Origin: Leptolyngbyaceae cyanobacterium
GTDB taxonomy: Bacteria; Cyanobacteriota; Cyanobacteriia; Phormidesmidales; Phormidesmidaceae
Length of the DNA stretch: 64,000 nucleotides
Direction of reading: 5' to 3'
Assembly: GCA_965263355.1 (NCBI GenBank)
Contig: CBDHHL010000032.1
Location: forward strand, 2,016,001-2,080,000
Of the stretch, positions 9,764 to 40,914 are shown in pieces; the first letter of the stretch is position 1, and every line of letters starts with the position of its first letter. Both the position numbers and the translations under genes were made by a program. The notes beneath the pieces were generated by a model that was not told where the DNA came from, did not search any database, and saw nothing but the letters and a program-made list of their open reading frames with translations.

Positions 9764-12694
9764 TCAGGATTTTGTATGACTAATCGCTACATCAATTGGA
9801 ATTGAAAGTAAGGCATGGATCAAGTCAAGATACTGCTGGCCCAGCTTTTGAATGGTATGGGCATGGTGGAAGTTTTGTGAATATTCAATTTCTAGCTGCA
9901 GGGTACCTTCAGAAATTGAAAAGAAGAATTCTAGGAGCGTGGTTCGTTTTTGCTCAGGCAGGGCTAAACGGCGATCGCGTTCGGCTTGATTAAATTCAAA
10001 GGTGTCAGAATCTGGTAACGAACGATTGCCTAGATAGTTAGCTCTGATGGGGGTGAGTTTTTCATCAGGGTAGAGATGGGTCGGCAGTCGATCGGCAATC
10101 CAGTCGTAGGTGATGCCGTTCATGGGGAGTTCTGTAAACTGTTGCCCAATTTTTTCGACCAGGGTCTGCCAACTGTCGGTCGAGCTAATATTTAAGCCAA
10201 GTGGGACGTTTACGGCAAAATTTCCAAAGCTTTGCCAGAATACTTGATTATCTCCCAGGTCTCGACCGTGGCTGCGGTGGCTAATTACAACCCATTCTGT
10301 TTGAGCCCAGTTAGCCATCAGTTTATATAAGGGTGCCAGTAGTAGCGAGTAAACGTTACCTTGAAAACGTTGTTTAGCATCTCGCAACAGGGTTTCGGTG
10401 GTTGCTGATGACAGCTGAAATAGTTCACTGGCTGCCGAGCCTTCAATATTACTGTCTCTTGGGAGCTGATCGTAGGGAAACTTAAAGCTTTGAGCTGCTG
10501 TCGGGAATTGATTTTTCCAATAGTCTAAGTGACTGGCTAGTTGACCCTGTTGATCAGCGGCTTGTAGCTGCTGAAGATAGCTAAGATAGGTTGTCTCCAC
10601 ATCGGTCTGGGGAGATGGCCCATGGTTGAGTTGTTCATAGGTGGCCCAAAGGTCCTGGAACAAGACATTGCCTGCTAGTAAATCAGCGATCATATGGTGG
10701 GCAACCATGACAATGTCGTAGCAGGTTTCGTGCACTTTCATCACCAGCAGGTTAAATAGTGGCCACTGGTCTAAGCGTAAACGCTCTATAGCCTGTTGAA
10801 TTTTGAATTCAATGTAGCGATCGCATTGTTCTGGCGCAAAACAGCTACCGTCGCTAAAGGTGATGTTGACATCGGCAGGTGGGGGCAGAACCTTTTGTTG
10901 CCATTGCTCATTTGTTTGGGTAAACACCGTGCGCAGGGCCGGATGACGAACAACCACCTGTTTAAAGGCCTGGGTAAACTGGGCTGCATCCAGTGCCCTT
11001 TGGTAACGAAACCGAGTATAGCCTGCCCATTGATAGGGCGGTTCAAAATAATTGACTATCCAGCGCTGGGCTGGGGCCAGAGGAAAGCTATCAATGTTGT
11101 TATCGGCTGATGGGGTTGACGGCTGAGCCTGGATCGCCAGCAAGGCCTTACGATCCAATTTACCATTGTGATTTTTGGGCAGACTGGGAAGCCACTCAAT
11201 CCGCTGAGGCACCATATAATGAGGCAGCTTTTGGGCGACAAACGCTTTAATTTCTCTCACCGATGTGGTTTGACCGGCCAACCAGGCCACCAGTCGTTTT
11301 TTGCCTTCCTCATAATCCACCGCCAACACCGCCGATTCATTGACAGATGGGTGTTGGGTTAACACATTTTCAATTTCCCCCAGCTCTACCCGAAACCCGC
11401 GAATTTTGACCTGGTGATCAATCCGACCATGGTACTCAAACGTACCATCGGGACGTTCTTTAGCTAAATCTCCAGAACGGTAGAGAGTGTCCCCAGGAAT
11501 GTCGTCAAAGGGATTGGGTTGGAAGGTTTTGGCAGTCTTCTCAGGATTTTTAAGATAGCCCTTGGCCAGCTGCACACCCCCGATCCAAAGTTCTCCCATT
11601 TCACCCTGGGGAACGGGGCGTTTCTCAGCATCCAGAATGCGGATATAAACATTGTCGATGGCCTTGCCAATGGGGATACTCCCCTCAGGACGGGATTCGA
11701 TTAGATGGGCGGTAACATCAATGGAGGCTTCCGTGGGACCGTATAAATTGGCCAACCCGGTGGCCATGCCATGCTGATCAATCCATTGTTGGATAAAGGC
11801 AGCAGGTAAGGCTTCACCACTAAAAATCAACCAGCGCAGATCGGGAAAATCCCAGGACTCATTGACCAGAGCATTGATAAATTCGCCAAACAGGGAGGGA
11901 ACAAAGTGCATCACCTGGATGCGAGTGGTCTTCATCCATTGGGCAAACTCCCAGGGGTTGAGCACAATTTCTCGCTTAACTGGGCAAATGGTGGCCCCTT
12001 CCATCAATGTCCAAAACAGTTCCCAGACAGAAATGTCAAAACAGAAGGAGGTTTTTTGGGCCACTCGATCGCCGGGGCGGAGCTGGAAGGCTTTTTGCAT
12101 CCATTCAAGACGATTCATATAGCCCTGGTGGTTCAGCATTACCCCTTTGGGACGCCCCGTTGACCCCGATGTGTAGAGAACGGTCATCAGATCGTCTGGA
12201 TCTTGGTCGACCAATGGAGCTGTGGTGGCAGCGATGGACCAGGTGTCTGGAAGAATTTGCTCAATCGCTTGGGGAAGTTCAATCGGGGCTCCGTTATCTA
12301 ACAACACCATGGCACGTAGCTGCAGTGGTTCTGCTAAACAGGTGGTTAAGGTATCAGCAACGCCATGTTCACTCAACAACAGTTGAATTTCGGCATGGTC
12401 AAGAATATAGCGGATGCGATCAGCGGGATAGGCCGGATCTAAGGGAACGTAGGCTCCACCTGCTTTAAGAATACCGAGAATGGCAATTACCATTAGGGGG
12501 CCCCGCTGGGTGATCACCCCCACCCGGCTGTTGCGGCCCACCCCCTGGGTGCGCAAATAGTTGGCCACCTGGTTAGAACGGCGGTCGAGCTGGGCGTAGG
12601 TCAACGGCTGATCGGCTTGGAGGACAGCGATCTCATCTGGCGTTTGATGGGCCTGGGCAACAATCTTAAGGTAGGGAATTTCCAGTTTTGACAT
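9764..12694 (-). CDS. NRPS, A-C architecture without carrier domain; A domain predicted Ser
   Basis: A motifs YTSGSTGRPKG, NLYGPTE, YRSGDL, GKLDRKAL followed directly by C1 (FPLAPAQ) and HHMIAD. Manually read specificity residues DIWHISLIDK resemble the Ser code. Confidence 0.92.
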   Translation of the reverse strand: MSKLEIPYLKIVAQAHQTPDEIAVLQADQPLTYAQLDRRSNQVANYLRTQGVGRNSRVGVITQRGPLMVIAILGILKAGGAYVPLDPAYPADRIRYILDHAEIQLLLSEHGVADTLTTCLAEPLQLRAMVLLDNGAPIELPQAIEQILPDTWSIAATTAPLVDQDPDDLMTVLYTSGSTGRPKGVMLNHQGYMNRLEWMQKAFQLRPGDRVAQKTSFCFDISVWELFWTLMEGATICPVKREIVLNPWEFAQWMKTTRIQVMHFVPSLFGEFINALVNESWDFPDLRWLIFSGEALPAAFIQQWIDQHGMATGLANLYGPTEASIDVTAHLIESRPEGSIPIGKAIDNVYIRILDAEKRPVPQGEMGELWIGGVQLAKGYLKNPEKTAKTFQPNPFDDIPGDTLYRSGDLAKERPDGTFEYHGRIDHQVKIRGFRVELGEIENVLTQHPSVNESAVLAVDYEEGKKRLVAWLAGQTTSVREIKAFVAQKLPHYMVPQRIEWLPSLPKNHNGKLDRKALLAIQAQPSTPSADNNIDSFPLAPAQRWIVNYFEPPYQWAGYTRFRYQRALDAAQFTQAFKQVVVRHPALRTVFTQTNEQWQQKVLPPPADVNITFSDGSCFAPEQCDRYIEFKIQQAIERLRLDQWPLFNLLVMKVHETCYDIVMVAHHMIADLLAGNVLFQDLWATYEQLNHGPSPQTDVETTYLSYLQQLQAADQQGQLASHLDYWKNQFPTAAQSFKFPYDQLPRDSNIEGSAASELFQLSSATTETLLRDAKQRFQGNVYSLLLAPLYKLMANWAQTEWVVISHRSHGRDLGDNQVFWQSFGNFAVNVPLGLNISSTDSWQTLVEKIGQQFTELPMNGITYDWIADRLPTHLYPDEKLTPIRANYLGNRSLPDSDTFEFNQAERDRRLALPEQKRTTLLEFFFSISEGTLQLEIEYSQNFHHAHTIQKLGQQYLDLIHALLSIPIDVAISHTKS

Positions 12695-12770
12695 CGGTTT
12701 TTATTTCCTTAATCTCTATTTTCTAAAAACAGCAGCAAACAAAGTCTGGGGAGTACATTGCAACCTAGGG

Positions 12771-15700
12771 TTAACCCATGACAAAGGTTGTTATTTGTAA
12801 GGTTTGTCCCATCTCGTGCAGACTGCGACAGCTTAGTAAAGCTTTGCGATCGACCGTTCCCCACTGTTTTTCTAACTGGGTAACAATGCGAATGCGTTCT
12901 AGAGAATCAAACCCAAGGTCGGCCTCAAGATCGAGGGTCATATCCTGGGGACTGATGGGCATATGACACACTGCGGTGGCCACCTGTTGCAACAGGGTTA
13001 AGATTTTCTCATCTACTGGTAAGGTTGTTGCGGTCTCTGGTTTTGCTGCGGGTGGACTGGTTTCAGCCAAGGCTTTAAGTTCAGCTTGATAGGCCTGCAT
13101 CAGCTGATCAATGGCTCCACCACTAAAGAAACTCCGGTCGTAGCTCACAAATAGATGTAGCTGATCATCAAAAATCTCTTGCAGAATGTCGAGAATGCCT
13201 GCCGCGTTAATGCCGCCAGCCTGATAGTCAATCACGCTCAGGTTACCGTACTGGCCTTGCAGTCGAGTATGACCGGTGTAGGGAAGATATACATTGGCCT
13301 TAATCGCTTCATGGAAGAGAGAAAGACTATAGTCAGGCACTCGACCCTCTTCCAGGGGCACATGATCCTTGAACGTGAGACCCATTTTTTCAGTTTGGGC
13401 CCGGTCAATACCGCTGGTTAAGGCCGTCTGAATGGTTTCATGGGTGCGCAACAGCAGTTGTTGCCAACTCTCCTGGGGGTGAACCCGGGCAAAACTAAGG
13501 GCCAGGTTTTGAGCAAAGCTACTCACCTGATGGGAGGCATCCACCTGGGGATAAATCCGTCCACTGGTGGGCATTTGCAAAATCATCTGGGCGCTTTCGC
13601 GATCGCACTGACTTAGTGCCCGTAAAAAAGCCCCAATCAACAACGAGTTCAACGGCAGCCGCCATTCACGGGTACGGGCAATCAATTGGGTGGTGATGCG
13701 CCGCTCTAGATGGTAGGGCTGGCTTTGATACTGGGGGATGGCAAAGCAAAACGGCTGAGCGTTTGGGTTCCAATAGTAGGTGGCTTGCCCCTGCCGCTCA
13801 ATGTAATCCTCTAGAGCCTGTTCCGCCTGGGGATCCACCTTGGCATTCATGGCGGTAACGGTGGCAGCATAGTCAGTCAGGCTGGTAGCCGGGGGCAAAT
13901 CGGGGGGTTCACCCAGGCTGCGGGCGCGATAGATTTCTAAAAATTCATGGAGAATGATGTGATTGCCCAACCCATCTGAAATCAGATGCTCGTTACCTAA
14001 AAACAGCTGATAGACAGATTCTTGCAGCTGCATGACAGAAAATTGATGGAGTGGCCACTGGGTCAAGGGCCAAGCATGGTTAAGCCAACGCTGGCGTTCG
14101 GCAGCAAGGGCACTGGCCTGGGTCTTGGGAGTCAGCTGCCGCAAATCGGTATAGCCAATCTTAGGTAGCTGGGGTTGCTTAAGCACCTCCAGGCGATAGT
14201 CATGAAAACGCTCGGCCTGGGCTGGAACCCGAAAACGCGATCGCAGCATCGGATGGCGCTCAATCAAATCTTGCCAGCTTTGCTGGGCAATATCTAAATC
14301 GAACGGTCCTGCCAGCCGCACGGTGGCAAAGAGACTGTTGCCATTAACTAACCCATGGCCAATTAGGTGAAAATATTGACCGTGTAAAAGCTCGATAGTC
14401 TGGGCATCGCTGTCTTTTGCTGACTCTAATGCTGTTGATGATGTGTCAACCTTAGGCGCAGTATCGGTGTCGGTGCCAGACGCTTGCCAGGGTGCCAACA
14501 GATCGATCACTGCCTGCAAATGGGGGAGCTGTAGTAAATCCCGGAGGGAAACTTGTTTTTGAAAATCGGCTTGGGCGGTTTTGGGAATCAGCTTAAACAG
14601 ACCATTCATTAATTGGGTCAACATAATTGAATCAAGACCCAACTCCCCTTCTAAAGTCTGAGTTAACCCAATCCGCTGTTGGGGTAGCCCAGTGATGTCC
14701 GCTGTCAGGGTTAATACCCGCTGTTCCAGACTGACGGATGTATCTTTTGCAGGTAAGGCCGATAACTCTGCTTGAACCGCTACTTGGGTAGGCAATTCGT
14801 CAGGTAAATCCACCCAATAGCGCTGACGCTGAAACGGATAGGTGGGAAGTGCTCGACGCTGCCGTGGGTAGTCATGGTCAAATGCTTTCCAATCGATATC
14901 CAGACCTTGGCTGTTGAGCATTGCCAAACTGTTTAGCAGCACGGACCAATCGGACTGACCGTTGCGTAAGGATGGTAGTGCCCGGTTTCCATCGGTCCTT
15001 ATCCGGTTGATTAACTTGTTGTCAGGGCCAATTTCAATATAGAGCTGACAGCCTTGGTTCTGGAGTGTGGCCAGGGCGGTTTCAAAGACATCAGTCGCCT
15101 GAACCTGTTGTTGCCAATAGCGTCCCTGAGCCAGGTCAACAGCGCTAGCGATTTGTCCCGTAACACTGGATATCAGCTGAAACTGCAGGCCCTGGTAGGT
15201 AAGGTTGGAGGCACGTTGCCCAAAGGCATTTAACAAGGTTTGACGGGACTCAGCATTGCCAGACTCCTCCCACTGGTGCATTAGCTGAGCACGTTCTACC
15301 ACTAACTTGAGAGCATCATCCAGGCTCAAGAGTCCAGCCGCACAGGCTGCAGCATATTCTCCCACCCCTTGGCCAAAGACATAGTCGGGGCGTACACCCC
15401 AAGCTTGCCAAAGCTGATAAAGGGCATATTCAATGGCAAACACCGCTGGCTGAGCATAGGCAGGCTGGTTAATTAACTGTTCCTGGGCGATAGAGGACGG
15501 ATAAAGAACATTCAGCAGGGATTGGGCAAAATGAGATCGCAACCCTGCTTCACAGGCTAATAGGGCCTGGCGGAATGTAGGCTGTGCTTCATAAAGCTGA
15601 CGACCCATATGAGCATAGGCTGCAGCGTCACCGGTAAACAGAAATGCCACATGGGTGTTTTGAGCCTTGCCCGTGTAAACCCCTGACCCTAGCTGGCCAT

Positions 15701-17357
15701 TGCTAAAGTCGGCTAGCTGTTGGCTCAATTGTTCTGACGAAGCGGCCACTGCACACAGGCGATGGTCAAAACGGGCACGGGTGGTATTGGCACTAAAACA
15801 AAGGTCTGCCAGGGGCATCTCCGGCTGGGTCAGCAACTGTACCTCATAGCGACTGGCTAGCTGTCGTAGGGCGGTCTCGCTGCGGGCAGAAAGGGTCAAT
15901 AGGTGCAATGGGCGATCGACCTCAGCCACGGGTGTCGTCGGTTGGAACGGGGCTTCTTCGACCACGATATGGGCATTGGTCCCACTGACCCCAAATCCAC
16001 TCAGCCCTGCCCGACGAGGCTGCTCAGCTCTGGGCCAGGGAGTCAGCTGGGTGGGCACCTGAATCGGTAATTGCGTCCAGGGAATATGGGGATTGGGATT
16101 GTTGAAATGTAGATGGGGAGGAATTGCCTGGTTTTGCAGGGAAAGTACCAGCTTGATCAAACCTGCTACACCCGCTGCCGATTCCAAATGGCCCACATTG
16201 GTCTTTGCTGCACCCACCAGCAAGGGCTGATCCCGAGAACGGGTCTTACATAGCTCAGCCGCAAGCGCCTCGATCTCAATCGGATCTCCCAGGGACGTGC
16301 CAGTGCCGTGGGCCTCTACATAGCTGATGTCTTCAGGGCTGACCCCACCATTGGCCAGGGCCTGACGAATGACCGCCCTCTGGGCCGGACCATTGGGCAC
16401 CGTGAGACCACTACTGGGGCCATCTTGATTAACGGCAGAACCGCGAATCACAGCCAAAATTGGATCCCCCTGGGCAATCGCATCGCTCAGCCGTTTGAGT
16501 ACCACCAGACCGCACCCTTCTCCTCGGGCAAACCCATCGGCGGCTTGATCAAAGGTCTTACAACGGCCATCCTGGGCAAGCATTCTAGCTCGACTAGCGG
16601 CCACAAACCCATCTGGAGATAAGGCTAAATTTACTCCACCGGCCAGGGCTAAATCGCACTCTCGCTGCCGCAGACTTTGACAGGCCAGATGTACGGTTAC
16701 CAAGGATGATGAACAGGCCGTATCGACGGCCATACTGGGTCCCTGTAGCCCCAGGGTGTAGGACAGACGCCCCGCCGCCGCATTGAGATGGTTACCGGTA
16801 ATGCTGTAGGCATCAATGGCCGTGCGATCGGCAGCCCGTGTCTGCATTTGTAGATAGTCGTTAATGGTGACCCCCACAAAGACGCCACCGCGACTGCCTC
16901 TGAGCATCTCTGGTTGTAGGCCAGCATGCTCGATGGCCTCCCAGGCAACTTCCAGCAGTAGCCGCTGTTGCGGATCTAGATGAATAGCCTCCCGAGGGGG
17001 AAGGCCAAAAAACGCTGGATCAAACTGGTCAACATTGCGCAGAAATCCCCCCCTAGACACATACATCTTGCCGGGTTGATCCGGGTCTTCCCCATAGAGC
17101 TGGTCGAGATCCCACCCCCGCTCAGCGGGCACTGTCGTAGTGGCATCAATACCATTGGCCAGCAGCGACCAAAACATCTCTGGACTATTAACATTTCCCG
17201 GCAATCGACAGCCCATTCCGACAACGGCCAATGGTTCTGTCTGTCTACTCTCTAAGGATGCAAGCTTAGCTCGCATCTCTCGCATGGCTAACAGCGCAGT
17301 CTTTAAACGATCTTTTTGATCATTGGGTTGGGCACTGGAGGGGGAAGCGGTATTCAT
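12771..17357 (-). CDS. Hybrid PKS-NRPS: KS-AT(inactive)-ACP-C-T
   Basis: KS DTACSSS/HGTGT/KTNVGH; AT GQGVGE lacks catalytic Ser; ACP LGLDSI; C domain EHLISDG; terminal carrier LGFDSL. Likely start MNTAS at 17357. Confidence 0.92.
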   Translation of the reverse strand: MNTASPSSAQPNDQKDRLKTALLAMREMRAKLASLESRQTEPLAVVGMGCRLPGNVNSPEMFWSLLANGIDATTTVPAERGWDLDQLYGEDPDQPGKMYVSRGGFLRNVDQFDPAFFGLPPREAIHLDPQQRLLLEVAWEAIEHAGLQPEMLRGSRGGVFVGVTINDYLQMQTRAADRTAIDAYSITGNHLNAAAGRLSYTLGLQGPSMAVDTACSSSLVTVHLACQSLRQRECDLALAGGVNLALSPDGFVAASRARMLAQDGRCKTFDQAADGFARGEGCGLVVLKRLSDAIAQGDPILAVIRGSAVNQDGPSSGLTVPNGPAQRAVIRQALANGGVSPEDISYVEAHGTGTSLGDPIEIEALAAELCKTRSRDQPLLVGAAKTNVGHLESAAGVAGLIKLVLSLQNQAIPPHLHFNNPNPHIPWTQLPIQVPTQLTPWPRAEQPRRAGLSGFGVSGTNAHIVVEEAPFQPTTPVAEVDRPLHLLTLSARSETALRQLASRYEVQLLTQPEMPLADLCFSANTTRARFDHRLCAVAASSEQLSQQLADFSNGQLGSGVYTGKAQNTHVAFLFTGDAAAYAHMGRQLYEAQPTFRQALLACEAGLRSHFAQSLLNVLYPSSIAQEQLINQPAYAQPAVFAIEYALYQLWQAWGVRPDYVFGQGVGEYAAACAAGLLSLDDALKLVVERAQLMHQWEESGNAESRQTLLNAFGQRASNLTYQGLQFQLISSVTGQIASAVDLAQGRYWQQQVQATDVFETALATLQNQGCQLYIEIGPDNKLINRIRTDGNRALPSLRNGQSDWSVLLNSLAMLNSQGLDIDWKAFDHDYPRQRRALPTYPFQRQRYWVDLPDELPTQVAVQAELSALPAKDTSVSLEQRVLTLTADITGLPQQRIGLTQTLEGELGLDSIMLTQLMNGLFKLIPKTAQADFQKQVSLRDLLQLPHLQAVIDLLAPWQASGTDTDTAPKVDTSSTALESAKDSDAQTIELLHGQYFHLIGHGLVNGNSLFATVRLAGPFDLDIAQQSWQDLIERHPMLRSRFRVPAQAERFHDYRLEVLKQPQLPKIGYTDLRQLTPKTQASALAAERQRWLNHAWPLTQWPLHQFSVMQLQESVYQLFLGNEHLISDGLGNHIILHEFLEIYRARSLGEPPDLPPATSLTDYAATVTAMNAKVDPQAEQALEDYIERQGQATYYWNPNAQPFCFAIPQYQSQPYHLERRITTQLIARTREWRLPLNSLLIGAFLRALSQCDRESAQMILQMPTSGRIYPQVDASHQVSSFAQNLALSFARVHPQESWQQLLLRTHETIQTALTSGIDRAQTEKMGLTFKDHVPLEEGRVPDYSLSLFHEAIKANVYLPYTGHTRLQGQYGNLSVIDYQAGGINAAGILDILQEIFDDQLHLFVSYDRSFFSGGAIDQLMQAYQAELKALAETSPPAAKPETATTLPVDEKILTLLQQVATAVCHMPISPQDMTLDLEADLGFDSLERIRIVTQLEKQWGTVDRKALLSCRSLHEMGQTLQITTFVMG

Positions 17358-17432
17358 AGCATTGGCCAAGGAAACGTCAGGTGAACAAAAGCAAGAAAAC
17401 AACGAGGCTAATTTAGAAAGCTACAGCGATGG

Positions 17433-27797: not shown

Positions 27798-29360
27798 TTA
27801 AGCCAGGGGCACCGGCACATAATGGGTGAAATGAACCGGTAGCTGTAATCCCTGCAGTTGCAGATGATTTAGACGATACCGATAGGCAGCTCCAGTAATC
27901 AGATGATGGGCTACATCACTGACTCGACGGGCCGATGGCTGGGCCAGGTAGGTGTCTTTCACCCAGCTGTTAAATGCCCCCATCGCCGGACCACACCAAA
28001 TCTGGTAATCCATTTTGCGGTTGTCATCTCCCCGAATAGACCAGCGCGATGACAGCCCCAAATACCAGCGAAAGATCAGCGCCATTTTACGTTTGGGATG
28101 ATCTTTCGCCCGTTCAATTTGCTCGGGATCGCGCTGATTAAAATACTCAACGGTTTCTTGCCAAATTGTTTCTAGGGGTTTACCAAAAACCTGTTGTTCT
28201 AATTTTTGCCGCTCAGTGCTGTCAATCTCGTCAATGCTGTCATAGCGTTGGTAAAGCTCGTAGAGCTTTTGTGCCCGCATGGGAAACAATGTTCCCCGTT
28301 TGAGCAACTGTACCTTAACACCCATTTCGAACATATCGGAAGAGGGGGCCATGGTAACATCGGCCATGCCAATCTGGCTTAAGAGGTTTTTGGTGTGGTC
28401 TGAGGTCCCAGCTTCTGTACAAGATTGATTGACTGAGCCTGTCACCACATAGCTTGCTCCCATGGCAAAGGCTGCCAGGGCTGCATCAGGGGTGCCAATT
28501 CCCCCTGCCGCTCCCACCCGTACCGGGGTGGGGTAGCGATACTGTTGTTGGATTTGATCCCTCAGGGCCAGAACCGTGGGAAAGAGACACACCAAGGAGC
28601 GGTTATCGGTATGGCCACCGGAATCAGCTTCAATGGTAATGTCGTCCGCCATGGGCACCTGGGCCGCTAAGCTAGCCTGATGTTGGGTGATCTCCCCTTG
28701 TTCCAACAGTCCCTTTAACAGTTTTTCCGGAGCTGGTTGCAAAAACTGTTGGGCCACTTCTAACCGGGAGAGTTTGGCAATAACTCGGTGGCGACTGTGG
28801 ATGTTACCAGCAGCATCCAATTCCAGGCCAGAGACTCGATACCGGACTAAATCTGGGGTAAGGGAGAGAAACGCAGAGGCTTCAATGGTGGTAATCCCAT
28901 GCTTTAGATAGAGATCAACCGCACTGCGTTCTAAGGCGGCTTCACTGGGGCTGTGGATCAGGTTAAAGGCGTAGGGACCATTGGGCAGGGCAGTTTGGAT
29001 TTGTGCGATCGCAGCCTCAATCCGAGCGGGCACCAATCCAGCCGATCCAAAACTCGACAGAAATCCAGCTTTACCCAAGGCAATGACCATCTCAGCTGAC
29101 GAAATCCCATTGGCCATCGCCCCGGCCATATAGGCATAGCGCACCCCATGGGCGGCTCGAAACGCGGCACTACCCAGATGCTCTGGCGGTAGGGCAGGAA
29201 CAAAACACAGGGCTGACTCACCGGTTGCTAGCTGATGGGTAAAACCAATCTGTTGACCCTGTTTGACGACATAACAGGGGGCCGACAAGTTGTGCAGCCG
29301 GGTTTTGATATCCGCAGGACTGACGGCTAAGGAGGGTGGAGAGAGAGTGGAAACAGTCAT
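27798..29360 (-). CDS. pfaD: PfaD-family enoyl reductase of PUFA/Hgl synthases
   Basis: YMAGAMANGIS, EADSGGHTDNR, GAAGGIGTP, DYQIWCGPAMGAFN. Confidence 0.95.
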   Translation of the reverse strand: MTVSTLSPPSLAVSPADIKTRLHNLSAPCYVVKQGQQIGFTHQLATGESALCFVPALPPEHLGSAAFRAAHGVRYAYMAGAMANGISSAEMVIALGKAGFLSSFGSAGLVPARIEAAIAQIQTALPNGPYAFNLIHSPSEAALERSAVDLYLKHGITTIEASAFLSLTPDLVRYRVSGLELDAAGNIHSRHRVIAKLSRLEVAQQFLQPAPEKLLKGLLEQGEITQHQASLAAQVPMADDITIEADSGGHTDNRSLVCLFPTVLALRDQIQQQYRYPTPVRVGAAGGIGTPDAALAAFAMGASYVVTGSVNQSCTEAGTSDHTKNLLSQIGMADVTMAPSSDMFEMGVKVQLLKRGTLFPMRAQKLYELYQRYDSIDEIDSTERQKLEQQVFGKPLETIWQETVEYFNQRDPEQIERAKDHPKRKMALIFRWYLGLSSRWSIRGDDNRKMDYQIWCGPAMGAFNSWVKDTYLAQPSARRVSDVAHHLITGAAYRYRLNHLQLQGLQLPVHFTHYVPVPLA

Positions 29361-32300: not shown

Positions 32301-34363
32301 ACATAGGGTTCCTGTTGTATACAGGTTTTTACTTCATCGGGAGACGCGAGTAACACATAGCTGCGCCAGCGCAAATCACTGGCATCAGGCCAATGGGATT
32401 GAATGATATTTTGTGCCCCGGCCAATCGCGACTTAAATAACTGTGATTGATGGACAAACTCACTACCATAGTCTGCATTAGCCCACACATCTAGAGCATA
32501 CATCATGGTACTCTCTCCCATGCTGTAACCAAATGCGGACTGGGGTTTGACCTTAAAGATCTTGTGAATAATTTCTGTGAATAATACCGAAAATCCAGTC
32601 CCTGTTTCTAGCAGCACCAGTGGTAATTCATTCAGCTTTGCTTCTAGACCTTCCAGCTCACGCCGTGAGAGTCGTCGCTGACTTTTAGGATAAAGCTGTT
32701 GTACTTGAAAAAAGGCTAACGGATTGGAGCTTAAGCGATCAGCCCGCTCAAATAGGGCAGGAAACCGATGAAACAACGTTTGTCCCATCCCCAGATAGGA
32801 GTTAAAGGCACCAGGGTAAACAAATGCAACCCCTCCCCACTGTCCCTGGGGACGAGCGGTAAAGTAGCTACCCCCAGGACTTTTCCAGTCCTGACCCTGG
32901 GCAAACGCCTGTTTGATCCCTAAACGAGCGCGGTGTATTTCTTTGTACAGTTTCTCTTTAGAACTACCTACTAGGACCACAGCGTAGGGCAATTGCGAAT
33001 TATCAGTTAGGCTTATTTGTTGTGCCAACGCCGCCAGGTTGTCGGTTGCCTCAAGCTGTTGTTCTAGCTGAGTTAATCGGACCATTAATGCTGATTGATC
33101 GGCAGCTGCGATCGCAAACAGTCCCAAAAAGGTAGTGGGTAAATTGGGTTTACACGGATGGTGGGCTTCACTTAGCAACAGATGACCGTAACAACTGTTG
33201 ACAGCGGCTCGTCGCGATAATTGTGGGCCAGCCACCAGCCAAGGGAGAGCCTTGGTGGCCACATAAAACGGACTGTTCTGCCAAAGGTCAGGCTGACGTG
33301 GGCTTTGCCACTGCGGTACTGGCGGTAAATATCGATGATACAGACACAACCCGGTATGAATTATCCCCAGTAAGTCGGCAACAGGTCCTGTATCTCCGAG
33401 ATTGGACTTAACACTACCCACAGCACAGGTCAACTCTGCTGGCTCTTGCCCATAGGCCTGGGCTAATCCGGTCAACTCAATATTGTCAAGGCTAGCATCA
33501 CCACTGGATACCAGCTCTATATAGTCAACAGCGGTTGACTCTACCCCAGTCTGTTGCATTACTTGCTGAACACGTCGGGCCACCATCTCAGCACTATTAA
33601 AAGAGGGGTGACAATGGGATGTTGCTTCAATTACCGCATAAATACGATCCCCCGATTGAATCGCCTTTTCATAGGATTTGAGCAGGATAGCGGCGGCACC
33701 TTCACCAGGGTAGTTTTCTTTGGCCGAGGCATCATAACTAAACGCAGCATCTCCCACTACGGCTGCACCACTGAGTAAATGGGAAGCACCAATGGCAACC
33801 GCCTCTACTTCACCAGCCGTCAACATTAATTGCGCTCGGTCAATGGCCTTAAAGGCAAAGTCATTCCCCGGCTCAAGGGTAAGGGCTGTGGAACGACACC
33901 CCCACAACTTGCCTAGTTTATAGGCCATAGGACTATGGGCCTGTTGGGGGGGGGTTATGGATTTCTGCTGACGTAATTCATCATGGTGAGACGCTTTTCC
34001 AGCTGCAACAGACACTACGGGTGCTAATGTTTCAACTGATTGCTGAATAGTCGAGTCTGGATAGATAACGGCTAATTTAGCCAGCCCATGGGAATTACTT
34101 TGACCCACAGCCCGATTAAGTACTGTCAGTAAAAGTAACTGTTGAGGATCAAGTTGTTCCAAATCCTTAGGGGGGATTTTTAGCTCAAATGCATCTATCT
34201 CAAAATCTTGCAAGTAAGCACCTGGAGGAATATCTGGCAATGTTTCTGGCCCAGGTGTCGAAAAATGTTGTTGACCTTCATAGCTACTTTGCAACAAGAT
34301 ATCAATACCTTGACAGGATCCAACAAAGGTTTCCATCCCTACAATTGCCAGTTTGATCGTCAT
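29369..34363 (-). CDS. PfaB/C-like protein: degenerate KS/CLF - AT - two FabA-type dehydratase regions
   Basis: KS-fold remnants without active Cys; AT GYSMGE; two FabA-like sites CHFKNDPTMPG and FHFYNDPVMPG; AAGGAG RBS before ATG 34363. Confidence 0.88.
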   Translation of the reverse strand: MTIKLAIVGMETFVGSCQGIDILLQSSYEGQQHFSTPGPETLPDIPPGAYLQDFEIDAFELKIPPKDLEQLDPQQLLLLTVLNRAVGQSNSHGLAKLAVIYPDSTIQQSVETLAPVVSVAAGKASHHDELRQQKSITPPQQAHSPMAYKLGKLWGCRSTALTLEPGNDFAFKAIDRAQLMLTAGEVEAVAIGASHLLSGAAVVGDAAFSYDASAKENYPGEGAAAILLKSYEKAIQSGDRIYAVIEATSHCHPSFNSAEMVARRVQQVMQQTGVESTAVDYIELVSSGDASLDNIELTGLAQAYGQEPAELTCAVGSVKSNLGDTGPVADLLGIIHTGLCLYHRYLPPVPQWQSPRQPDLWQNSPFYVATKALPWLVAGPQLSRRAAVNSCYGHLLLSEAHHPCKPNLPTTFLGLFAIAAADQSALMVRLTQLEQQLEATDNLAALAQQISLTDNSQLPYAVVLVGSSKEKLYKEIHRARLGIKQAFAQGQDWKSPGGSYFTARPQGQWGGVAFVYPGAFNSYLGMGQTLFHRFPALFERADRLSSNPLAFFQVQQLYPKSQRRLSRRELEGLEAKLNELPLVLLETGTGFSVLFTEIIHKIFKVKPQSAFGYSMGESTMMYALDVWANADYGSEFVHQSQLFKSRLAGAQNIIQSHWPDASDLRWRSYVLLASPDEVKTCIQQEPYVYLTHINTAQEVVIGGTADACQRVIAALGCESFRSPANLVLHCEAMASAYPDLFALNHVPSLNPSDIRFYTSANNRPLSLDKETIAHHLATGICQPLDFPKLVNQVYADGARIFIELGSGGTCTRWIGEILSQQDHTVVGINRRGTNDYTAIVKVLAQLVSHRVPLDLSPLYAESTPPPKLPQRISLPLSRPSGDNVAREKNAILTVAEITEITEERVSRLFGPDYATVDGYLRRVRLPSPPYQFVSRVTELSGERGNYKTGVVETEYDLPPTPWYAVDGQVPIGVCAEAGHGLLLLLSYLGSDFESLGQRSFRLLDLCSEFFAVQPEKLQTLRYRVKITSHVKTTKSLLIFFEGECWADGTRWMRLSGGCAGLFSDEELADGQGIVGQPKAIPAAENPFLPLLNSGKVALNQSEILQLSQGNLAVLGAAYGHDNNPSLRLPPAQLLMVDQVLTLDATGGGAGLGQVTGSKVVTPDDWYFQCHFKNDPTMPGSLMVEGGSQLLQIYLLWLGLQTRTQAATFQPLPDCKVAFQFRGQVTPATGTLHYQVDIVQIGLVPCPFAIANIRVSWGDKVIATIDNLGLQIYGKPVSQPVPKPSVVKPVAFDDQSLKTLAMGRVADCLGPDFAMFDQRRCVRIPNRDFQLVSRVLEVPAERQLKPGAKIITEYDVAPDAWFYQQNNYPHLPYCAHIEIAGQPCIFLGLYLDTPLLSPSEDLYFRNIDGQATVLKEIDLRGKTITDEVELTSAHVLEGTILQSFAYQLSCEGDPFYRGTMVFGYFSDQVLANQSGLDNNQLQPTWYESAGATGETLILQDAAIRQRFYQAPAQRPHGRLATGYFDLLDRAIVVPGGGTHQQGYIYGEKAISSSNWYFPFHFYNDPVMPGALGVETILQAMQLYALHQGIDQGFKSPRFAQALNHAITWKYRGQITPDNQTLYLEVHVSKVQREAGRITLIGDASLWKETMRIYAIQNIALCIQEA

Positions 34364-34398
34364 TGACCCCAATCTCCTTTTATCTCTGATTTCTGGTC

Positions 34399-36168
34399 TT
34401 AACTGGCGAGTGCAACAGTCTTCGCGGAGTAGACATTTTCTAAGAATCGCTCCTTAAGACGGGGACTCTTCACAACCTGCATTTCTTCAACTTGTATACA
34501 CACCTCACCAGATGCATTACGAGCTGTGGCATTGGCCGTAACCGTACTATTATCTTCAGCCAAAATCTCAAGTGAAAGCTCAAATAGTTGATCGAACAGT
34601 AGAGGCTTAAACTGTTTTAAGCTTTTTAGCTGGGCGGGAAGGCTGGCCAAACCTCGCTGTTTTCTCACCCACACTAGCAAACCTTGGAAAAAGACATCAG
34701 CTGTGTAAGGATTAAAAGATTGCACCTGAAATTGCCCCTGTTGCCAGGGATCAAGGGTGGGTAAATAGCACTGACAGCGGAGCTGTTTTTCATCTAGCTC
34801 AAGTACGCTGCGGATACTTTGAAACGCTGGTTGATGAAAGAGAGTACCGTCTTGATAAAGAGAGGAGACGTCCATAGAGGGGTGCGATCGCACAGCGGCC
34901 ATCACAAATAGCGATTCTGAGGGTTGGGCCGCTGGATCTTTTAATAAACGCAAACGGGAGCGGTAGTGATACCGTGGCATTTTTCTGGCACTTTCACTCC
35001 AAACCACAGCTTCTAAGATAATAGTGTCTTTATCTGACTGTTTTTCAGTTAAGTCCAAGCGATAGAGCGGTGCCAGAGTCTCATCAAAGACAATTCCTTT
35101 AAGTACCTTAAAGTCCTGTACTTCAGCAAATCGATACCCTGGGTAACACTGCTCACCTAAATTAGCAATCCAGCCTAATCCACACATAGCCGGCAACACA
35201 GGTTGATGACCAATGACATGGTTCACAACAAATGGATTAGCCGCTAGAGTGATTTTGCGCTGTACTCGATGACTATAGTCATTTCCATAAGGACTCCCCG
35301 TCGGCAATGTAATCGGACGGCTCATAACGGTTAACTGTGGCTCCTTAGACTCTTCCCTGGCTAGTTCCGCAACCACCACCTTAGCTCCAAATTCAGGCGG
35401 GATAAGGGCCATATCGAGCTGTGCAAAATGTTGTTTTAGCTCAGCCGTAACCATGCCGCCATCCCAGGGACCCCAACCAATGGCCACCACTTTGCAATTG
35501 GGATAACGCTGCTGCAAGCGATGAGCCGATTTATTTAAGATCTCATTGGCCAAGGCATAATCTGCCTGACCAGCATTGCCATAAAGACCTACAAAGGATG
35601 AAAATAAGATCAAAAAATCTAGCTGCTCAGGCTCCACACTGCTCAGTAGATTATTTAACCCCGTCACCTTAGTATTATAGACTCGCTCAAAATCTTGCTC
35701 GGTTTTTTGTTCAATCCGTTTATCGGCTAAGGCCCCTGCTCCGTGAATAATGCCAGTGATCGGGCCTAGGGTTGCGATGGTCTTAGCAATAACCTGGCTA
35801 AGCGCCTCTCCATTGGTAACATCAACACTTATATATTCGGCTTTACCCCCTACTTTCTCAATCGCCTGGAGGGTGCCCATGATCTCTCGATAGGTTTTAA
35901 TAGCGCGATATTGTCGCTGCACAACTAGTGGTTTTGGCTTCTGGCCCTGGGCCAAAAGCACCTGCATAATTTGTCGTTTGAGTTCGGCTTCATCCTCCAA
36001 GCCTACTGCCCAGGCAGGTTCCCCTTGAGAAATTGACGAGCGCCCCAACAACACAAACTGACAGTGATATTGGCGAGCAAGTTCGATTACACATTGAGCA
36101 GTCACCCCCCGCGCACCACCGCTAACCATGATGACAGAGTTTGAGTGAATCTTTGTCGGCGTAGACAT
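34399..36168 (-). CDS. KR-DH didomain (HglG / PfaA C-terminal-like)
   Basis: GGARGVT, GQADYALAN, WGPWDGGMV; DH NHVIGHQPVLP. Confidence 0.9.
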   Translation of the reverse strand: MSTPTKIHSNSVIMVSGGARGVTAQCVIELARQYHCQFVLLGRSSISQGEPAWAVGLEDEAELKRQIMQVLLAQGQKPKPLVVQRQYRAIKTYREIMGTLQAIEKVGGKAEYISVDVTNGEALSQVIAKTIATLGPITGIIHGAGALADKRIEQKTEQDFERVYNTKVTGLNNLLSSVEPEQLDFLILFSSFVGLYGNAGQADYALANEILNKSAHRLQQRYPNCKVVAIGWGPWDGGMVTAELKQHFAQLDMALIPPEFGAKVVVAELAREESKEPQLTVMSRPITLPTGSPYGNDYSHRVQRKITLAANPFVVNHVIGHQPVLPAMCGLGWIANLGEQCYPGYRFAEVQDFKVLKGIVFDETLAPLYRLDLTEKQSDKDTIILEAVVWSESARKMPRYHYRSRLRLLKDPAAQPSESLFVMAAVRSHPSMDVSSLYQDGTLFHQPAFQSIRSVLELDEKQLRCQCYLPTLDPWQQGQFQVQSFNPYTADVFFQGLLVWVRKQRGLASLPAQLKSLKQFKPLLFDQLFELSLEILAEDNSTVTANATARNASGEVCIQVEEMQVVKSPRLKERFLENVYSAKTVALAS

Positions 36169-36982: not shown

Positions 36983-37008
36983 TGGATAACGTTTAAGCGA
37001 CGGATGGT

Positions 37009-40000
37009 CTAGAGAGAGAGCGCTGGCTCCACTGATTTTTTTTTTCCGAGCTGTTGTACTAAATAATCAACAATCTGTTGTAAAGTACGAAGTTCTCCCA
37101 GAGCCTCTGTGCTGAGTTTAGGTAGGTCAGTCAGAGTATCCTGCACTCGGCCCATAATCTCAACACGCTTAATCGAATCAATTCCTAAGTCAGCCTCCAA
37201 GTCCATATCCAGCTCTAGCATTTCTGCAGGGTAACCGGTTTTTTCACTGACGGATGCCAACAGAGTCTTGGCTACATCATCTTGCAGAGCCTTATTGTCA
37301 GGGGTATTACTCGGAGCGGTTGTTTCAACCGATGGCATTTCTGCTGCTGGAGCAACTGTCGGGCTAACAGCTACAGGAGGAGCAACTGGTGCGGGAGGAG
37401 CAGCTGGTGCGGGAGGGGTCACCGAGAACTCTGAAGGCGCAGTAAATTGGATAGAATCATTGCCTTCAGACACAGAGGGGTTTACTGCTAAAGGAAGCTC
37501 ATTATTCTGATTGACTGGATTTGGCTCCTTCGAAGCTGACTTAGCAGGAGCTAATGGGGCAGCAGCAGGAGGTACCGTTGGCAACTGTTGTAAAACATTT
37601 GTTGAACCAGGCAAACTACCCTGCTGTATCTGCTGGACTATCTGCAAAAAGGCTTGGGAACAGCCTGCCTGATCTTTGAGGTATTGTTCATGAACGCGAA
37701 GAATTTCAGACTGATGAGAACAAAATTGGGTTAATAGATTTTCGAATGTAGTACCTGATAAATCGCTGGTTTGGGAGTTAAAGTCTGTCATAGTTTCAGT
37801 GTTCAGAGAGTAACTATCAAAATCGTCATCAATCAATGGGTCTGCGACAGATATAGGAACTATTAGATCAGGCGCAGTTTGAGTCTCAGCTGGTGGCTTG
37901 GAAATCACCTCAGCTGCCTCTTCTACAACAGGTATATCTGCATTGTCTGCATTGGGTGCATTGTCTGCATTGGGTGAAACATTGGACAAATTAACTTGAT
38001 GATTATCCAATAAGGCCTCTGCAAATTTCTGCTTAGTCTTATCGCTAACATAGTTGTTGCCATTTAAGGGAATGGACAACCGTGCTTTTTTAGTCGTTTT
38101 AGGTAATGGTGGATCAAGCTGGTAAAAATCAATGTTTTTCAATGGCAATCCAGCTACCTGCAACTGTACCACCGCTTGTCTTAACTGCAAATCACTATCT
38201 TTCTGACGACTGGGATTTAAGGCAACCGCAAAATGAGGACGGTCACCTAAAATACTTTCCACCAACCCTGTCAGAATACGACGGGGGCCAATCTCAATAA
38301 AACAGTCTCCACCTTGGGCATAGATATTCTCAATTTCCTGCTCAAACCGAACGGGCTTTATCAAGTGTTCCTTCAAGATTGCCTTGATTGCCTCAGGCTC
38401 TGCTGGATAGGCTTCGCCAGTTGTATTTGAATAGACTGGGATTGTTGGTGACTTAAATGTAATTGAGTCAATTGCTTCAGCTAATGGCTGACTGGCATGA
38501 CGAATAAATGGGGAATGGAACGCTGCAGAAACTGGCAAGAGCTTAACGTCATAACCACGGTTATTGAAAATTTGTTGTACAGCTGCAATTTCTGGCTTAC
38601 TACCCGATAAAACCACCTGGTTAGGGGCATTGTAATTGGCAATGATTACATGGGAAAGATTTTGAATTACAGCTTCAATTTCACTGATCTCTCCCATCAC
38701 TGACAGCATTGCACTGGCTTCACAGTGATGAGCCTGCGGTGATGGCGTCGCCATTGCCTCTCCCCGAGCTTTGACTAGCTCAAAATAATCCTCATCGCTA
38801 AGGACCTGAGCTGCCCATAGTGCAGTAATTTCACCAAAGCTATGCCCCGCCACAAAATTGGGTTGCAAATTGGCCTGTTGCAAAATTCTATACAGTCCAA
38901 CACTTAAGGCTCCAATGGCTGGCTGGGCATTACGAGTGCACTGTAGCGCCTCTGTTTCCTCTATTTCTAATGCGCTCTCAAAGGCTGGTCGTGGAAACAC
39001 AACCTGTGAGAGAGGGGATTGACCATCACGGATGAATAAATCATCCATACGCTTGTAGGCTTGATGCACCGGTGGAAAATCAATCGCTAGCTTGCGCCCC
39101 ATATTGAGATATTGTGAGCCCTGACCAGGAAACAGAGCAACCACCCGACCGTTAAGCTGCATTCCCTGTTTGCGATAGTAAAGCCCTCTTGGGTGCTCCC
39201 ATTTCTCTGATTGTGCTTGCCTGTCTAAAAGTTGTACACCAATCTCCAAAAGCTCTTTAAGTTCATCGATGGAATTAATAACCATACCCATGCGGGCTGC
39301 TTCTGTTGGGACCGCAGTCGTCTTGTAGGCAATGACTAAATTCCGATAAACAGTGTCAGCATCCTGATTTTTAAGTTCATATAAGACAGCCTTGCATTTA
39401 TCTTTTAGCTGACTATGATCATCCCCCCATAGCAAAATTGCCTGTGGCACCGAATGTAATCGATAGGCACAGCTGTGAACATGGTCATATTCTTCTAAAA
39501 CAATATGATAGTTTGTTCCACCAAACCCGAACGAACTAACACCTGCTCGGCGTAATGAATCTCCTTCTTGAATCCAGGGTTTCACCTCAGTATTAATGTA
39601 AAAGGGTGAATCTTCGATTTCAAATTTAGGATTAGGCTTAAACACGTTAATGGTCGGAGGCAGAATCTTGTGATGTAGGGATAATACCGCCTTGATTAAA
39701 CTCGCTGAGCCCGCTGCTGCCTTAGTATGGCCAATTTGAGACTTTACACTGCCTAAAGCAATGTATTGCTTTTTAGGATTGTTTTCGCCAAATATTGTTT
39801 TGAGCGATGTAAATTCACAAAGATCGCCTCGCGGAGTTCCGGTGCCATGGGCTTCCATCAAACCAACAGTCGATGGAGAAAACCCTGCATCCTCATAGGC
39901 ACGTCGAAGGGCCAACATTTGCCCTTCAGGTCGAGGCGCATAGATGCTTTTGTAGCGACCATCACTAGATGTCCCAACACCTTTGACAACGGCATAGATA

Positions 40001-40914
40001 CGATCGCCATCCCGTTCGGCATCGTCTAAACGCTTAAGCACCATCATGCCAATGCCTTCACCCACCATCATGCCGTCGGAATCAGCATCAAATGGACTGA
40101 GATGGTCTCGTTTAGAAAAAGCGGGTGTTTTGCTAAAGCACATGTAGTTGAGGATAGAATTATCCGTATCTACTCCACCCGTAATCATTAAATCGCAGCG
40201 TCGCTCGATCAGCTCACCCACAGCCATTTTGAAGGCACTTAGTGAGCTGGCACAAGCAGCGTCGACCGTGCAATTAGTCCCGCCTAAGTCCAATCGATTT
40301 GTAATTCGTCCAGCAACCACATTGGTTAACATGCCAGGGAACGAATTTTCTTGCCAGGGAACGTAAGCAAGCTTGATTTTTTCGATGATCCTGTCACTGT
40401 CCTCGTCGGAAAGTCCACTACTTTTAAGGACCTTTTTCCAAATGGGATACTGGAGTCGGCTGGTTAGTGGTGTGATCATTTTCCAAAGACCACTGGCCCC
40501 TAAAACCACTCCAGTTGTTTCTCGATTAAACTCCCGCGATTCGCTATAGCCAGCATCGTCTAATGCAGCCTTAGCGACAATTAAAGACAGTAATTGAGCT
40601 GAATCGATAGCTTCTAGACTATCAGGGGGCAATCCAAACTCAAGCGGATCAAAATTAACAGTGGGAAGAAAACCACCTCGACGCGAATAGGTTTTATCGG
40701 CAGCTGCTGGATCTGAATCATAGTACTCTGCTGTGTCCCAGCAGGACTTTGGAACATCAGTAATACAGTCTTTCTTATTGATAATGTTGCACCAGTATTC
40801 CTGCAGATCACGCGCTCCAGGGAATAAAGAGGCCATACCAATAATGGCAATAGGAATACGCTGAAGCTGGCAGTGCCATTCAGTTCGCCCTTGATATGTC
40901 ACTTCGTGTTTCAT
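37009..40914 (-). CDS. pfaA: PfaA/HglE-type iterative synthase: KS-AT-(Pro/Ala linker)-ACP
   Basis: DAACASS, EAHGTGT, KSQIGHTKAAAG; AT GHSFGE/AAFHS; single ACP EKTGYP..DLGIDSIKRVEI. Confidence 0.93.
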   Translation of the reverse strand: MKHEVTYQGRTEWHCQLQRIPIAIIGMASLFPGARDLQEYWCNIINKKDCITDVPKSCWDTAEYYDSDPAAADKTYSRRGGFLPTVNFDPLEFGLPPDSLEAIDSAQLLSLIVAKAALDDAGYSESREFNRETTGVVLGASGLWKMITPLTSRLQYPIWKKVLKSSGLSDEDSDRIIEKIKLAYVPWQENSFPGMLTNVVAGRITNRLDLGGTNCTVDAACASSLSAFKMAVGELIERRCDLMITGGVDTDNSILNYMCFSKTPAFSKRDHLSPFDADSDGMMVGEGIGMMVLKRLDDAERDGDRIYAVVKGVGTSSDGRYKSIYAPRPEGQMLALRRAYEDAGFSPSTVGLMEAHGTGTPRGDLCEFTSLKTIFGENNPKKQYIALGSVKSQIGHTKAAAGSASLIKAVLSLHHKILPPTINVFKPNPKFEIEDSPFYINTEVKPWIQEGDSLRRAGVSSFGFGGTNYHIVLEEYDHVHSCAYRLHSVPQAILLWGDDHSQLKDKCKAVLYELKNQDADTVYRNLVIAYKTTAVPTEAARMGMVINSIDELKELLEIGVQLLDRQAQSEKWEHPRGLYYRKQGMQLNGRVVALFPGQGSQYLNMGRKLAIDFPPVHQAYKRMDDLFIRDGQSPLSQVVFPRPAFESALEIEETEALQCTRNAQPAIGALSVGLYRILQQANLQPNFVAGHSFGEITALWAAQVLSDEDYFELVKARGEAMATPSPQAHHCEASAMLSVMGEISEIEAVIQNLSHVIIANYNAPNQVVLSGSKPEIAAVQQIFNNRGYDVKLLPVSAAFHSPFIRHASQPLAEAIDSITFKSPTIPVYSNTTGEAYPAEPEAIKAILKEHLIKPVRFEQEIENIYAQGGDCFIEIGPRRILTGLVESILGDRPHFAVALNPSRQKDSDLQLRQAVVQLQVAGLPLKNIDFYQLDPPLPKTTKKARLSIPLNGNNYVSDKTKQKFAEALLDNHQVNLSNVSPNADNAPNADNADIPVVEEAAEVISKPPAETQTAPDLIVPISVADPLIDDDFDSYSLNTETMTDFNSQTSDLSGTTFENLLTQFCSHQSEILRVHEQYLKDQAGCSQAFLQIVQQIQQGSLPGSTNVLQQLPTVPPAAAPLAPAKSASKEPNPVNQNNELPLAVNPSVSEGNDSIQFTAPSEFSVTPPAPAAPPAPVAPPVAVSPTVAPAAEMPSVETTAPSNTPDNKALQDDVAKTLLASVSEKTGYPAEMLELDMDLEADLGIDSIKRVEIMGRVQDTLTDLPKLSTEALGELRTLQQIVDYLVQQLGKKKSVEPALSL

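Follow-up and report, generated by a model that had tools for sequence, protein, structure and literature searches.

A colinear cyanobacterial gene cluster with PUFA-synthase-like, polyketide synthase and nonribosomal peptide synthetase parts, predicted to join a long acyl chain to serine

What is made by an assembly line in which genes resembling those of a polyunsaturated fatty acid (PUFA) synthase lead into polyketide synthase (PKS) modules and a nonribosomal peptide synthetase (NRPS) module? The question is raised by a 64,000-nucleotide stretch from a Leptolyngbyaceae cyanobacterium (assembly GCA_965263355.1, contig CBDHHL010000032.1, positions 2,016,001 to 2,080,000), which we call the window and in whose positions all coordinates are given. 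The open reading frame (ORF) listing, together with Pfam and NCBIfam scans used for gene and domain calls, reveals a core cluster of ten genes, all on the minus strand, that run from 40914 to 9764 in one co-oriented series with intergenic gaps of 8–133 bases. The genes code for PfaA in split and PfaBC in fused form, PfaD, a free acyl carrier protein (ACP), three type I PKS modules, a condensation-thiolation (C-T) unit and an adenylation (A) domain followed by a terminal domain of the condensation fold, termed E* below. We consider it about 75% probable that this is an intact member of a catalogued, chemically uncharacterised cyanobacterial family of pfa-like/PKS/NRPS clusters, named Type G or clade II, with a predicted product in which a long acyl chain is likely lengthened by three malonyl extensions and likely joined to serine. 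An earlier note on this DNA, made from its letters alone, had listed the same ten genes, and all of them are present in the orientation that it gave. Its gene content and core extent were right, but it missed acyltransferase (AT) remnants in PKS modules 1 and 3 and the conserved accessory genes that lie outside the core, at 2445–9609 and 47855–52651.

The note had recognised no known layout here, a view that does not hold against two papers, each available in part. Shulse and Allen (2011, PLoS One, PMC3098273) gave the name 'Type G' to a secondary lipid synthase of Anabaena variabilis, Microcystis aeruginosa NIES-843 and Nostoc sp. PCC 7120, with PKS genes always beside it and an uncharacterised product. 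The 'clade II' PKS-NRPS-PUFA-synthase-like triple hybrids of a 2026 paper in JACS Au (PMC13291983) come from Microcystis, Trichormus, Anabaena, Scytonema as well as Nostoc, again with an uncharacterised product; they have a split pfaA with a Rossmann-fold gene between the parts, a fused pfaBC, two PKS modules (three in some Nostoc and Scytonema strains) and one NRPS module. Shared between the window and these systems are a pfaA in two parts, a pfaBC fusion that carries AT and dehydratase/isomerase domains, PfaD and, directly next to these genes, two or three type I PKS modules with a single NRPS module. It differs from the Microcystis cluster in being fully colinear, in the order pfa, ACP, PKS modules 1–3, NRPS, where Microcystis has the order PKS-NRPS-pfa, and from the family as described in its extra free ACP, the dead ATs of modules 1 and 3, and an oxidase and a thioesterase that lie about 10 kb away. 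The available parts of both papers make no mention of an E*-type domain, an amine oxidase or PEP-CTERM proteins. The kind of cluster is already published, and what is added here is this well-preserved and unusually colinear copy, the E* domain and a possible link to PEP-CTERM proteins. The further claim of the note, that no product of such a layout has been characterised, is borne out by our literature searches, which found none and outside whose scope MIBiG lies; a search for pfa-like genes with tetramic acid likewise returned nothing relevant.

Within the lipid synthase part, pfaA is split with a small gene between its two pieces, and the fused pfaBC, with its AT and two FabA domains, is accompanied by PfaD, an arrangement described for Type G and clade II. 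The Cys and His motifs of an active ketosynthase (KS) are found in this part in the PfaA-like KS alone. Both are missing from the KS-like start of PfaBC, from its counterparts in Microcystis and Xenococcaceae and from the protein that combines KS-like and AT domains in a true heterocyst glycolipid (hgl) cluster. The small HglF-like protein gave no significant Pfam match and only weak SDR matches; it is likely, on its match to PfaA, which ends just before the ketoreductase (KR), to be the structural half of the KR. When relatives were compared ORF by ORF with the window proteins (loci are given L-numbers), homologues of this gene were found in the equivalent position in Microcystis and Xenococcaceae. 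The free ACP, which shares 46% identity with the ACP that opens an HglB-like protein in the hgl-type cluster of Heteroscytonema (L030), is likely the carrier that hands the chain from the lipid synthase to PKS module 1. Given the FabA domains, cis double bonds in the acyl chain are possible, chain length and unsaturation themselves not being readable from sequence.

All three PKS modules begin with a KS and none of them is a loading module, module 1 opening directly with its KS. The KS, dehydratase (DH), KR and ACP motifs of this part are intact, and the domains of the modules (DH-KR, KR and none) match the reduction series set out in the earlier note, from enoyl through beta-hydroxy to beta-keto. 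The KR type motif is LDD in module 1 and is lacking in module 2; the KR stereotype rules enter none of our conclusions. An AT that works in cis should have the Ser of GHSxG and the HAFH stretch. Module 2 has both, whereas in modules 1 and 3 Gly replaces the active-site Ser and the HAFH stretch is deleted. The module 3 remnant is common to the closest relative, Moorena sp. SIO3H5, and so represents an inherited state rather than an artefact; a full AT stands at this place in Microcystis, Crocosphaera and Xenococcaceae.

Module 1 is broken in the window into two ORFs, 26584–27408 (the N-terminal half of the KS) and 22253–26656, by a one-base frameshift. Reading the DNA by eye, we found that one added base at '...cccag/cacag...' would yield the usual KS sequence ...LSQAQMDGDPIYA.... 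In three public sequencing runs made from this organism, namely X1, X2 and X3, which come from two samples of a single study, the contigs are all one base longer after 26661, which restores a single frame; these contigs are near-identical to the window and possibly derive from its source DNA. A further run, X4, gave short, less similar contig pieces only. Because the X1–X3 contigs carry the extra base, the module 1 gene is whole, at about 1718 residues, and the break in the window is most likely an assembly error. Apart from it, there are no stop codons across about 31 kb of coding sequence.

The protein of module 3 runs on into a C domain (EHLISDG, with EHxxxDG in 6 of 6 relatives) and ends in a T domain, and the A domain sits on the next protein. 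This order of C-T followed by A-E* is real, since C-T-A-E*-SDR is fused as one protein in Heteroscytonema (L006) and Spirirestis (L007), the C-T part being 46% identical to that of the window. Comparison of the A-domain pocket segment, at the aligned positions that we take to form the pocket, with solved structures gave EntF as the second-best match, with the identical residue pattern D-I-W-H-I-S-L-I-D; the other top matches FscH, Txo1 and Txo2 also have this pattern in common with the window. EntF activates (loads) serine. The aligned segments read FDISVWE / HFVPS / IFSGEA / NLYGPTEASID in the window and FDVSVWE / HFVPS / FCSGEA / NLYGPTEAAVD in EntF. One Ile/Val change aside, the pattern is kept in 10 of 10 aligned relatives, and one of the same type occurs in all 66 family proteins, of 75 examined, in which an A domain was found. 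The serine proposed in the earlier note is thus likely, judged by the pocket residues.

The last domain had been read as a terminal C domain. Its best solved matches are instead epimerization (E) domains, namely PvdL E (E 1e-35), a bacitracin synthase E-C construct (7e-30), TycB (1e-29), TycA (3e-24) and GrsA (3e-17), against 1e-9 or worse for true condensation domains, so that release by a C domain becomes merely one possibility. The matches to TycA, GrsA and PvdL E extend over the full domain, and the HHxxxD, xxHGRx and NYLG motifs are recognisable. Alignment with PvdL E places HHLVVDG opposite HHMIADL and LEGHGRE opposite SHRSHGRD, which turns the catalytic Glu into Arg. The HHxxxD motif with the catalytic His of E domains is thus retained (HHMIADL in the window, HHxxxD in 10 of 10 relatives), whereas the Glu is replaced by Arg, within SHRSHGR, in the window and in 10 of 10 aligned relatives. 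EGHGRE is the corresponding motif of E domains, and it is seen also in PvdL E and in the outgroup proteins. The epimerization model TIGR01720 scored 35.8 bits on E*, below its cut-off of 74.2.

A query with E* against 5.8 billion proteins returned 75 relatives at E 1e-85 or better, followed by a jump to 1.7e-27, from where onward the matches are ordinary E domains with EGHGRE-like motifs. By this gap E* is a separate family, and it differs from NRPS E domains also in coming after A rather than T and in closing the assembly line. SHRSHGR is exact in 55 of the 75 proteins and takes the form SHRxHGR in 10 more, with the remaining 10 unresolved by pattern search. Named members are mostly cyanobacterial (Nostoc, Scytonema, Moorena producens JHB, Microcystis, Calothrix, Chamaesiphon, Merismopedia and others), and a few E* proteins, from Clostridium pasteurianum and from proteobacterial metagenome-assembled genomes (MAGs), are fused to SDR. 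A match at E 1e-60 was found in 2 of 401 sampled genomes of the phylum, with at most four candidates scored per genome, which is too sparse for a count of linkage.

Linkage between the pfa and PKS/NRPS parts, whose absence from all relatives the note had named as fatal to its proposal, is present in two of them. A Microcystis aeruginosa MAG (L002, L024 and L025; not NIES-843) holds nine core genes at 40–64% identity, the same set in another order, and carries on a single contig, in this sequence, the PKS, PKS-C-T and A-E* genes, pfaA to pfaD, the MFS transporter, the oxidase and two copies of u261, a secreted protein discussed below. In a Xenococcaceae MAG the pfa and PKS/NRPS genes also share one contig, the two parts being divergent. 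Searched out to housekeeping or transposase genes, the clusters of Microcystis and Xenococcaceae showed neither a thioesterase nor a reductase domain. Transposase genes of the IS605 OrfB/TnpB type lie beside the pfa genes in Moorena (L028, 7989–9104) and near the cluster end in Microcystis (L024, 4435–5766), and such neighbours fit the differing gene orders among genomes.

The oxidase, the MFS transporter and u261 belong to the cluster, since in Moorena, Microcystis, Crocosphaera and Xenococcaceae their genes lie within it or adjoin it; in Moorena the oxidase gene stands between those for C-T and A-E*. The 2026 paper mentions 'putative tryptophan halogenase' genes for Microcystis clusters (PMC13291983), and the FAD enzyme beside the cluster of the Microcystis MAG is an amine-oxidase-family homologue. 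A homologue of the AraC-type response regulator is found between the PKS and pfa genes in Xenococcaceae. The closest solved structure to the window oxidase is LkcE, the amide oxidase and Mannich cyclase of lankacidin (E 4e-25, residues 32–429 of 460). The match is nearly full-length, with some 25–30% of aligned residues identical by an estimate made by eye, and the two substrates, known for LkcE and predicted for the window, have a 5-hydroxy-3-oxoacyl end and an amide nitrogen in common. The general base E64 is strictly conserved in LkcE-type cyclases, according to the available part of PMC6162330. In our alignment the 'EH' of LkcE lies opposite 'VV' of the window oxidase, so that E64 becomes Val (the chain numbering is offset by four on our reading). 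Because E64 is not kept, the idea of an LkcE-type Mannich cyclisation lacks support and was set aside, and the window enzyme would be an oxidase of the LkcE fold rather than an LkcE-type cyclase. A literature search linking LkcE with cyanobacteria gave nothing relevant.

Three secreted proteins of no recognised family are encoded at 3586–4371, 4607–5689 and 2445–3338, two of them (u261 and u360) with clear PEP-CTERM tails. Read directly, u261 and u360 have a signal peptide, a PEP motif, a membrane helix and a basic C-terminal tail, as expected of PEP-CTERM proteins; the Pfam PEP-CTERM match on u360 reached E 0.01 only, and the nearest Atlas clusters to the u261 family are PEP-CTERM proteins. 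Homologues of u261 lie beside the cluster in Moorena, Microcystis (the two copies), Crocosphaera and Xenococcaceae. Our literature search found no paper that ties PEP-CTERM proteins to polyketide synthase clusters.

From these parts the following route can be proposed. The lipid chain made by the Pfa-like enzymes would pass, probably via the free ACP, to module 1, since this module lacks a loading module and starts with a KS. Three extensions would follow, module 1 leaving an enoyl, module 2 a beta-hydroxy and module 3 a beta-keto group, with modules 1 and 3 supplied in trans by a Pfa AT or by that of module 2. The A domain of the next protein would then load Ser in trans onto the T domain, and the C domain would form the amide. 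The T-bound N-(5-hydroxy-3-oxoacyl)-serine would be the substrate of E*, whose fold suggests binding of one carrier protein, and E* may release it by a Dieckmann-type closure, for which a 3-acyl-5-hydroxymethyl-tetramate is our first guess and a lactone our second. E* is favoured as the release catalyst because the clusters of Microcystis and Xenococcaceae yielded no thioesterase. Alternatively, E* might alter the serine, to D-Ser or dehydroalanine, and the stand-alone thioesterase would then release the chain. After release, the product could be oxidised at a C-N bond by the flavin amine oxidase, and its export would fall to the MFS pump. A wider proposal, which we regard as doubtful, is that C-T/A(Ser)-E* represents a new kind of NRPS ending, in which a domain of the epimerase fold with its Glu changed to Arg has turned into a chain-releasing or serine-transforming catalyst, and that the lipid-serine product and the secreted PEP-CTERM proteins form a cell-surface lipid system common to Microcystis, Crocosphaera, Moorena and relatives.

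Several observations weigh against this account. All chemical steps of the route are inferred. Two of the three PKS ATs are dead and trans-loading has to be assumed. E* is without the Glu of true epimerases, and a thioesterase is present in the window, so that E* need not be the release catalyst. The oxidase and thioesterase genes lie about 10 kb off on the opposite strand, behind a WD40 gene. Contigs end between the pfa and PKS/NRPS genes in Moorena, Crocosphaera and genome G305 (whose E* and PfaD matches are on different contigs), where linkage cannot be judged, and the A-E* unit also occurs with no pfa genes nearby in Heteroscytonema (L006) and Spirirestis (L007). Finally, the pfaBC of clade II is said, in the part of the 2026 paper available, to have no CLF domain (PMC13291983), with which the KS-like domain of PfaBC here conflicts in wording.

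How far do other explanations account for the same genes? If E* worked as an epimerase and gave D-serine, or as a dehydratase and gave dehydroalanine, with the thioesterase at 51857–52651 releasing a linear N-acyl-amino acid, the closeness of E* to the epimerization domains of PvdL, TycB, TycA and GrsA, its retained HHxxxD and the thioesterase homologue that adjoins A-E* in each of L005, L006 and L007 would be as expected. The alignment of the EGHGRE Glu to Arg, kept as SHRSHGR or SHRxHGR through most of the family, the score of TIGR01720 below its cut-off and the failure to find a thioesterase in the Microcystis and Xenococcaceae clusters speak against such an enzyme, and we judge this explanation unlikely, though it is the strongest of the alternatives. 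That the pfa-like and PKS/NRPS genes are mere neighbours with two separate products is improbable. A-E* does occur with PKS genes and no pfa genes nearby in L006 and L007; its neighbours in Heteroscytonema are genes for PKS, KAS III and exporters, and PfaD is matched only once in that genome, inside an hgl-type cluster (the Spirirestis locus looks the same, and the PfaD search covered the Heteroscytonema genome only). In Moorena, too, the pfa genes sit on separate contigs, with a transposase after them. These cases are set against one tight co-oriented operon in the window, a first PKS module with no loading module and a free ACP between the two parts, a linkage retained in Microcystis and Xenococcaceae despite their different gene orders, and the constant company of PKS genes reported for Type G (PMC3098273, in the part available).

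The frameshifted PKS, the deletions and Ser-to-Gly changes that break two ATs, and a terminal domain without its catalytic Glu might instead suggest a decaying cluster that makes nothing. This reading was set aside on the result that the frameshift is absent from the contigs of three runs; moreover, the AT remnant of module 3 occurs in Moorena too, alongside intact KS, ACP, C and T motifs, the altered E* motif is conserved across a family as random decay would not leave it, and no other stops interrupt the coding sequence, which makes decay very improbable. The cluster is least of all to be taken for a variant heterocyst-glycolipid synthase, an idea we find hardly credible. Likeness there is, in a PfaA-like KS-AT-ACP protein split off with an HglF-like gene, a KR-DH protein, a KS-like plus AT protein, a PfaD-like enoyl reductase and an ACP resembling the start of an HglB-like protein. 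However, no thioester reductase, glycosyltransferase or HetN-like gene turned up among the window ORFs of at least 150 residues, the HglB-type reductase being lacking as well, and the true hgl-type cluster of Heteroscytonema (L030 and L031) looks different. The family is moreover present in Microcystis, which forms no heterocysts. The window has a PKS/NRPS tail, and its two FabA domains are of a kind absent from Type F, the hgl synthases (PMC3098273, part available). Zeamine and fabclavine ('clade I') offer another case in which PUFA-synthase-like, PKS and NRPS parts cooperate, but they belong to another phylum and another architecture, and the window has no aminotransferase domain or thioester reductase; no aminotransferase family was found among the Pfam matches. 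On these grounds the statement in the earlier note that the cluster is neither of the heterocyst-glycolipid nor of the zeamine type stands. We therefore retain the assignment to Type G/clade II; the positions of its genes and of the accessory genes are collected in Table 1.

Table 1. Genes of the core cluster, in the order of the assembly line, and accessory genes of the flanks (aa, amino acids)
Feature	Position	Strand	Evidence or remark
PfaA-like first part, KS-AT-ACP	37009–40914	-	Pfam; NCBIfam TIGR02813 PfaA 1428 bits, PfaA positions 3–1068; KS Cys and His motifs, AT GHSFG, one ACP
Small HglF-like protein, 226 aa	36302–36982	-	TIGR02813 E 1e-24, PfaA positions 1757–1980
PfaA-like last part, KR and PKS-type DH	34399–36168	-	PfaA positions 1990–2582
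Fused PfaBC, 1667 aa: KS-like, PfaB-type AT (GYSMG), two FabA-type dehydratase/isomerase domains	29369–34372	-	Pfam/NCBIfam, PfaB family, motifs
PfaD enoyl reductase	27798–29360	-	TIGR02814 692 bits against a cut-off of 449
Free ACP, 89 aa	27461–27730	-	ORF listing; Pfam/NCBIfam
PKS module 1, KS-AT(remnant, GHGLG)-DH-KR(LDD)-ACP	22253–27408	-	One base missing in the window between 26661 and 26662
PKS module 2, KS-AT(intact, GHSIG and HAFH)-KR-ACP	17433–22157	-	Pfam and motifs
PKS module 3 and half NRPS module, KS-AT(remnant, GQGVG)-ACP-C(EHLISDG)-T	12771–17402	-	Pfam and motifs
A (serine-type pocket) fused to epimerase-like E* (HHMIADL; SHRSHGR for EGHGRE)	9764–12694	-	Pfam, structure matches, alignments
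Response regulator with AraC-type DNA-binding domain	8812–9609	+	Paralogue at 49492–50289
MFS transporter	6698–7882	-	48–65% identity in six loci (L001, L006, L007, L022, L024, L026)
DUF4386 membrane protein	5884–6624	-	Homologue in L005
u360, secreted, PEP-CTERM tail, 360 aa	4607–5689	-	Homologues in two genomes (L001, L023)
u261, secreted, PEP-CTERM tail, 261 aa	3586–4371	-	Homologues beside the cluster in four other genomes
u261 paralogue, degenerate tail motif	2445–3338	-	By eye against the u261 alignment
Histidine kinase and second AraC-type response regulator (49492–50289)	47855–50289	+	Directly upstream of the oxidase
FAD amine-oxidase-family enzyme	50363–51745	+	66–71% identical to genes inside or next to the clusters of relatives; closest solved structure LkcE
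Stand-alone thioesterase	51857–52651	+	Homologues adjoining the gene for A-E* in L005, L006 and L007

The surroundings of the cluster show further features. The WD40-repeat protein (1192 aa, 41655–45233), whose first 540 residues have no identification among the matches listed, lies between the pfaA-like gene and the group of kinase, regulator, oxidase and thioesterase genes. An HlyD-type gene occupies the window end at 1–939. In Heteroscytonema (L006, 16687–22313) the C-T-A-E*-SDR gene is followed by genes for an MFS transporter, a thioesterase, a KS, a KAS III, an HlyD-type protein and an FtsX-type permease, and these neighbours, with the HlyD-type gene of the window, hint that a lipid is exported to the envelope. 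The G+C content is 0.45–0.55 in the megasynthase genes (9764–40914), highest in the PKS genes, as against 0.38–0.43 in the accessory genes and flanks (1–9600 and 41000–52651); the higher value of the core may reflect acquisition from elsewhere or merely the composition typical of such genes. Farther along are an orphan Cas6-like gene (55387–56262), a 146-base repeat of 1.8 copies (61081–61354) that overlaps the 3' end of an NB-ARC/TPR gene (61212–62876), and a C-rich 114-base tandem repeat of 2.9 copies (63394–63720) in a stretch with a GC skew of -0.38.

The family to which we assign this cluster spans ecologically important cyanobacteria, among them bloom-forming Microcystis and marine Crocosphaera and Moorena, and it has been in print since 2011, still without a known product. 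In a fully colinear copy such as this one, the order of the biosynthetic steps is easier to read than in the relatives. The serine pocket, the order of C-T followed by A-E*, the altered E* domain, the dead ATs, the flavin amine oxidase, the MFS pump and the secreted PEP-CTERM proteins together provide handles toward the compound and its role.

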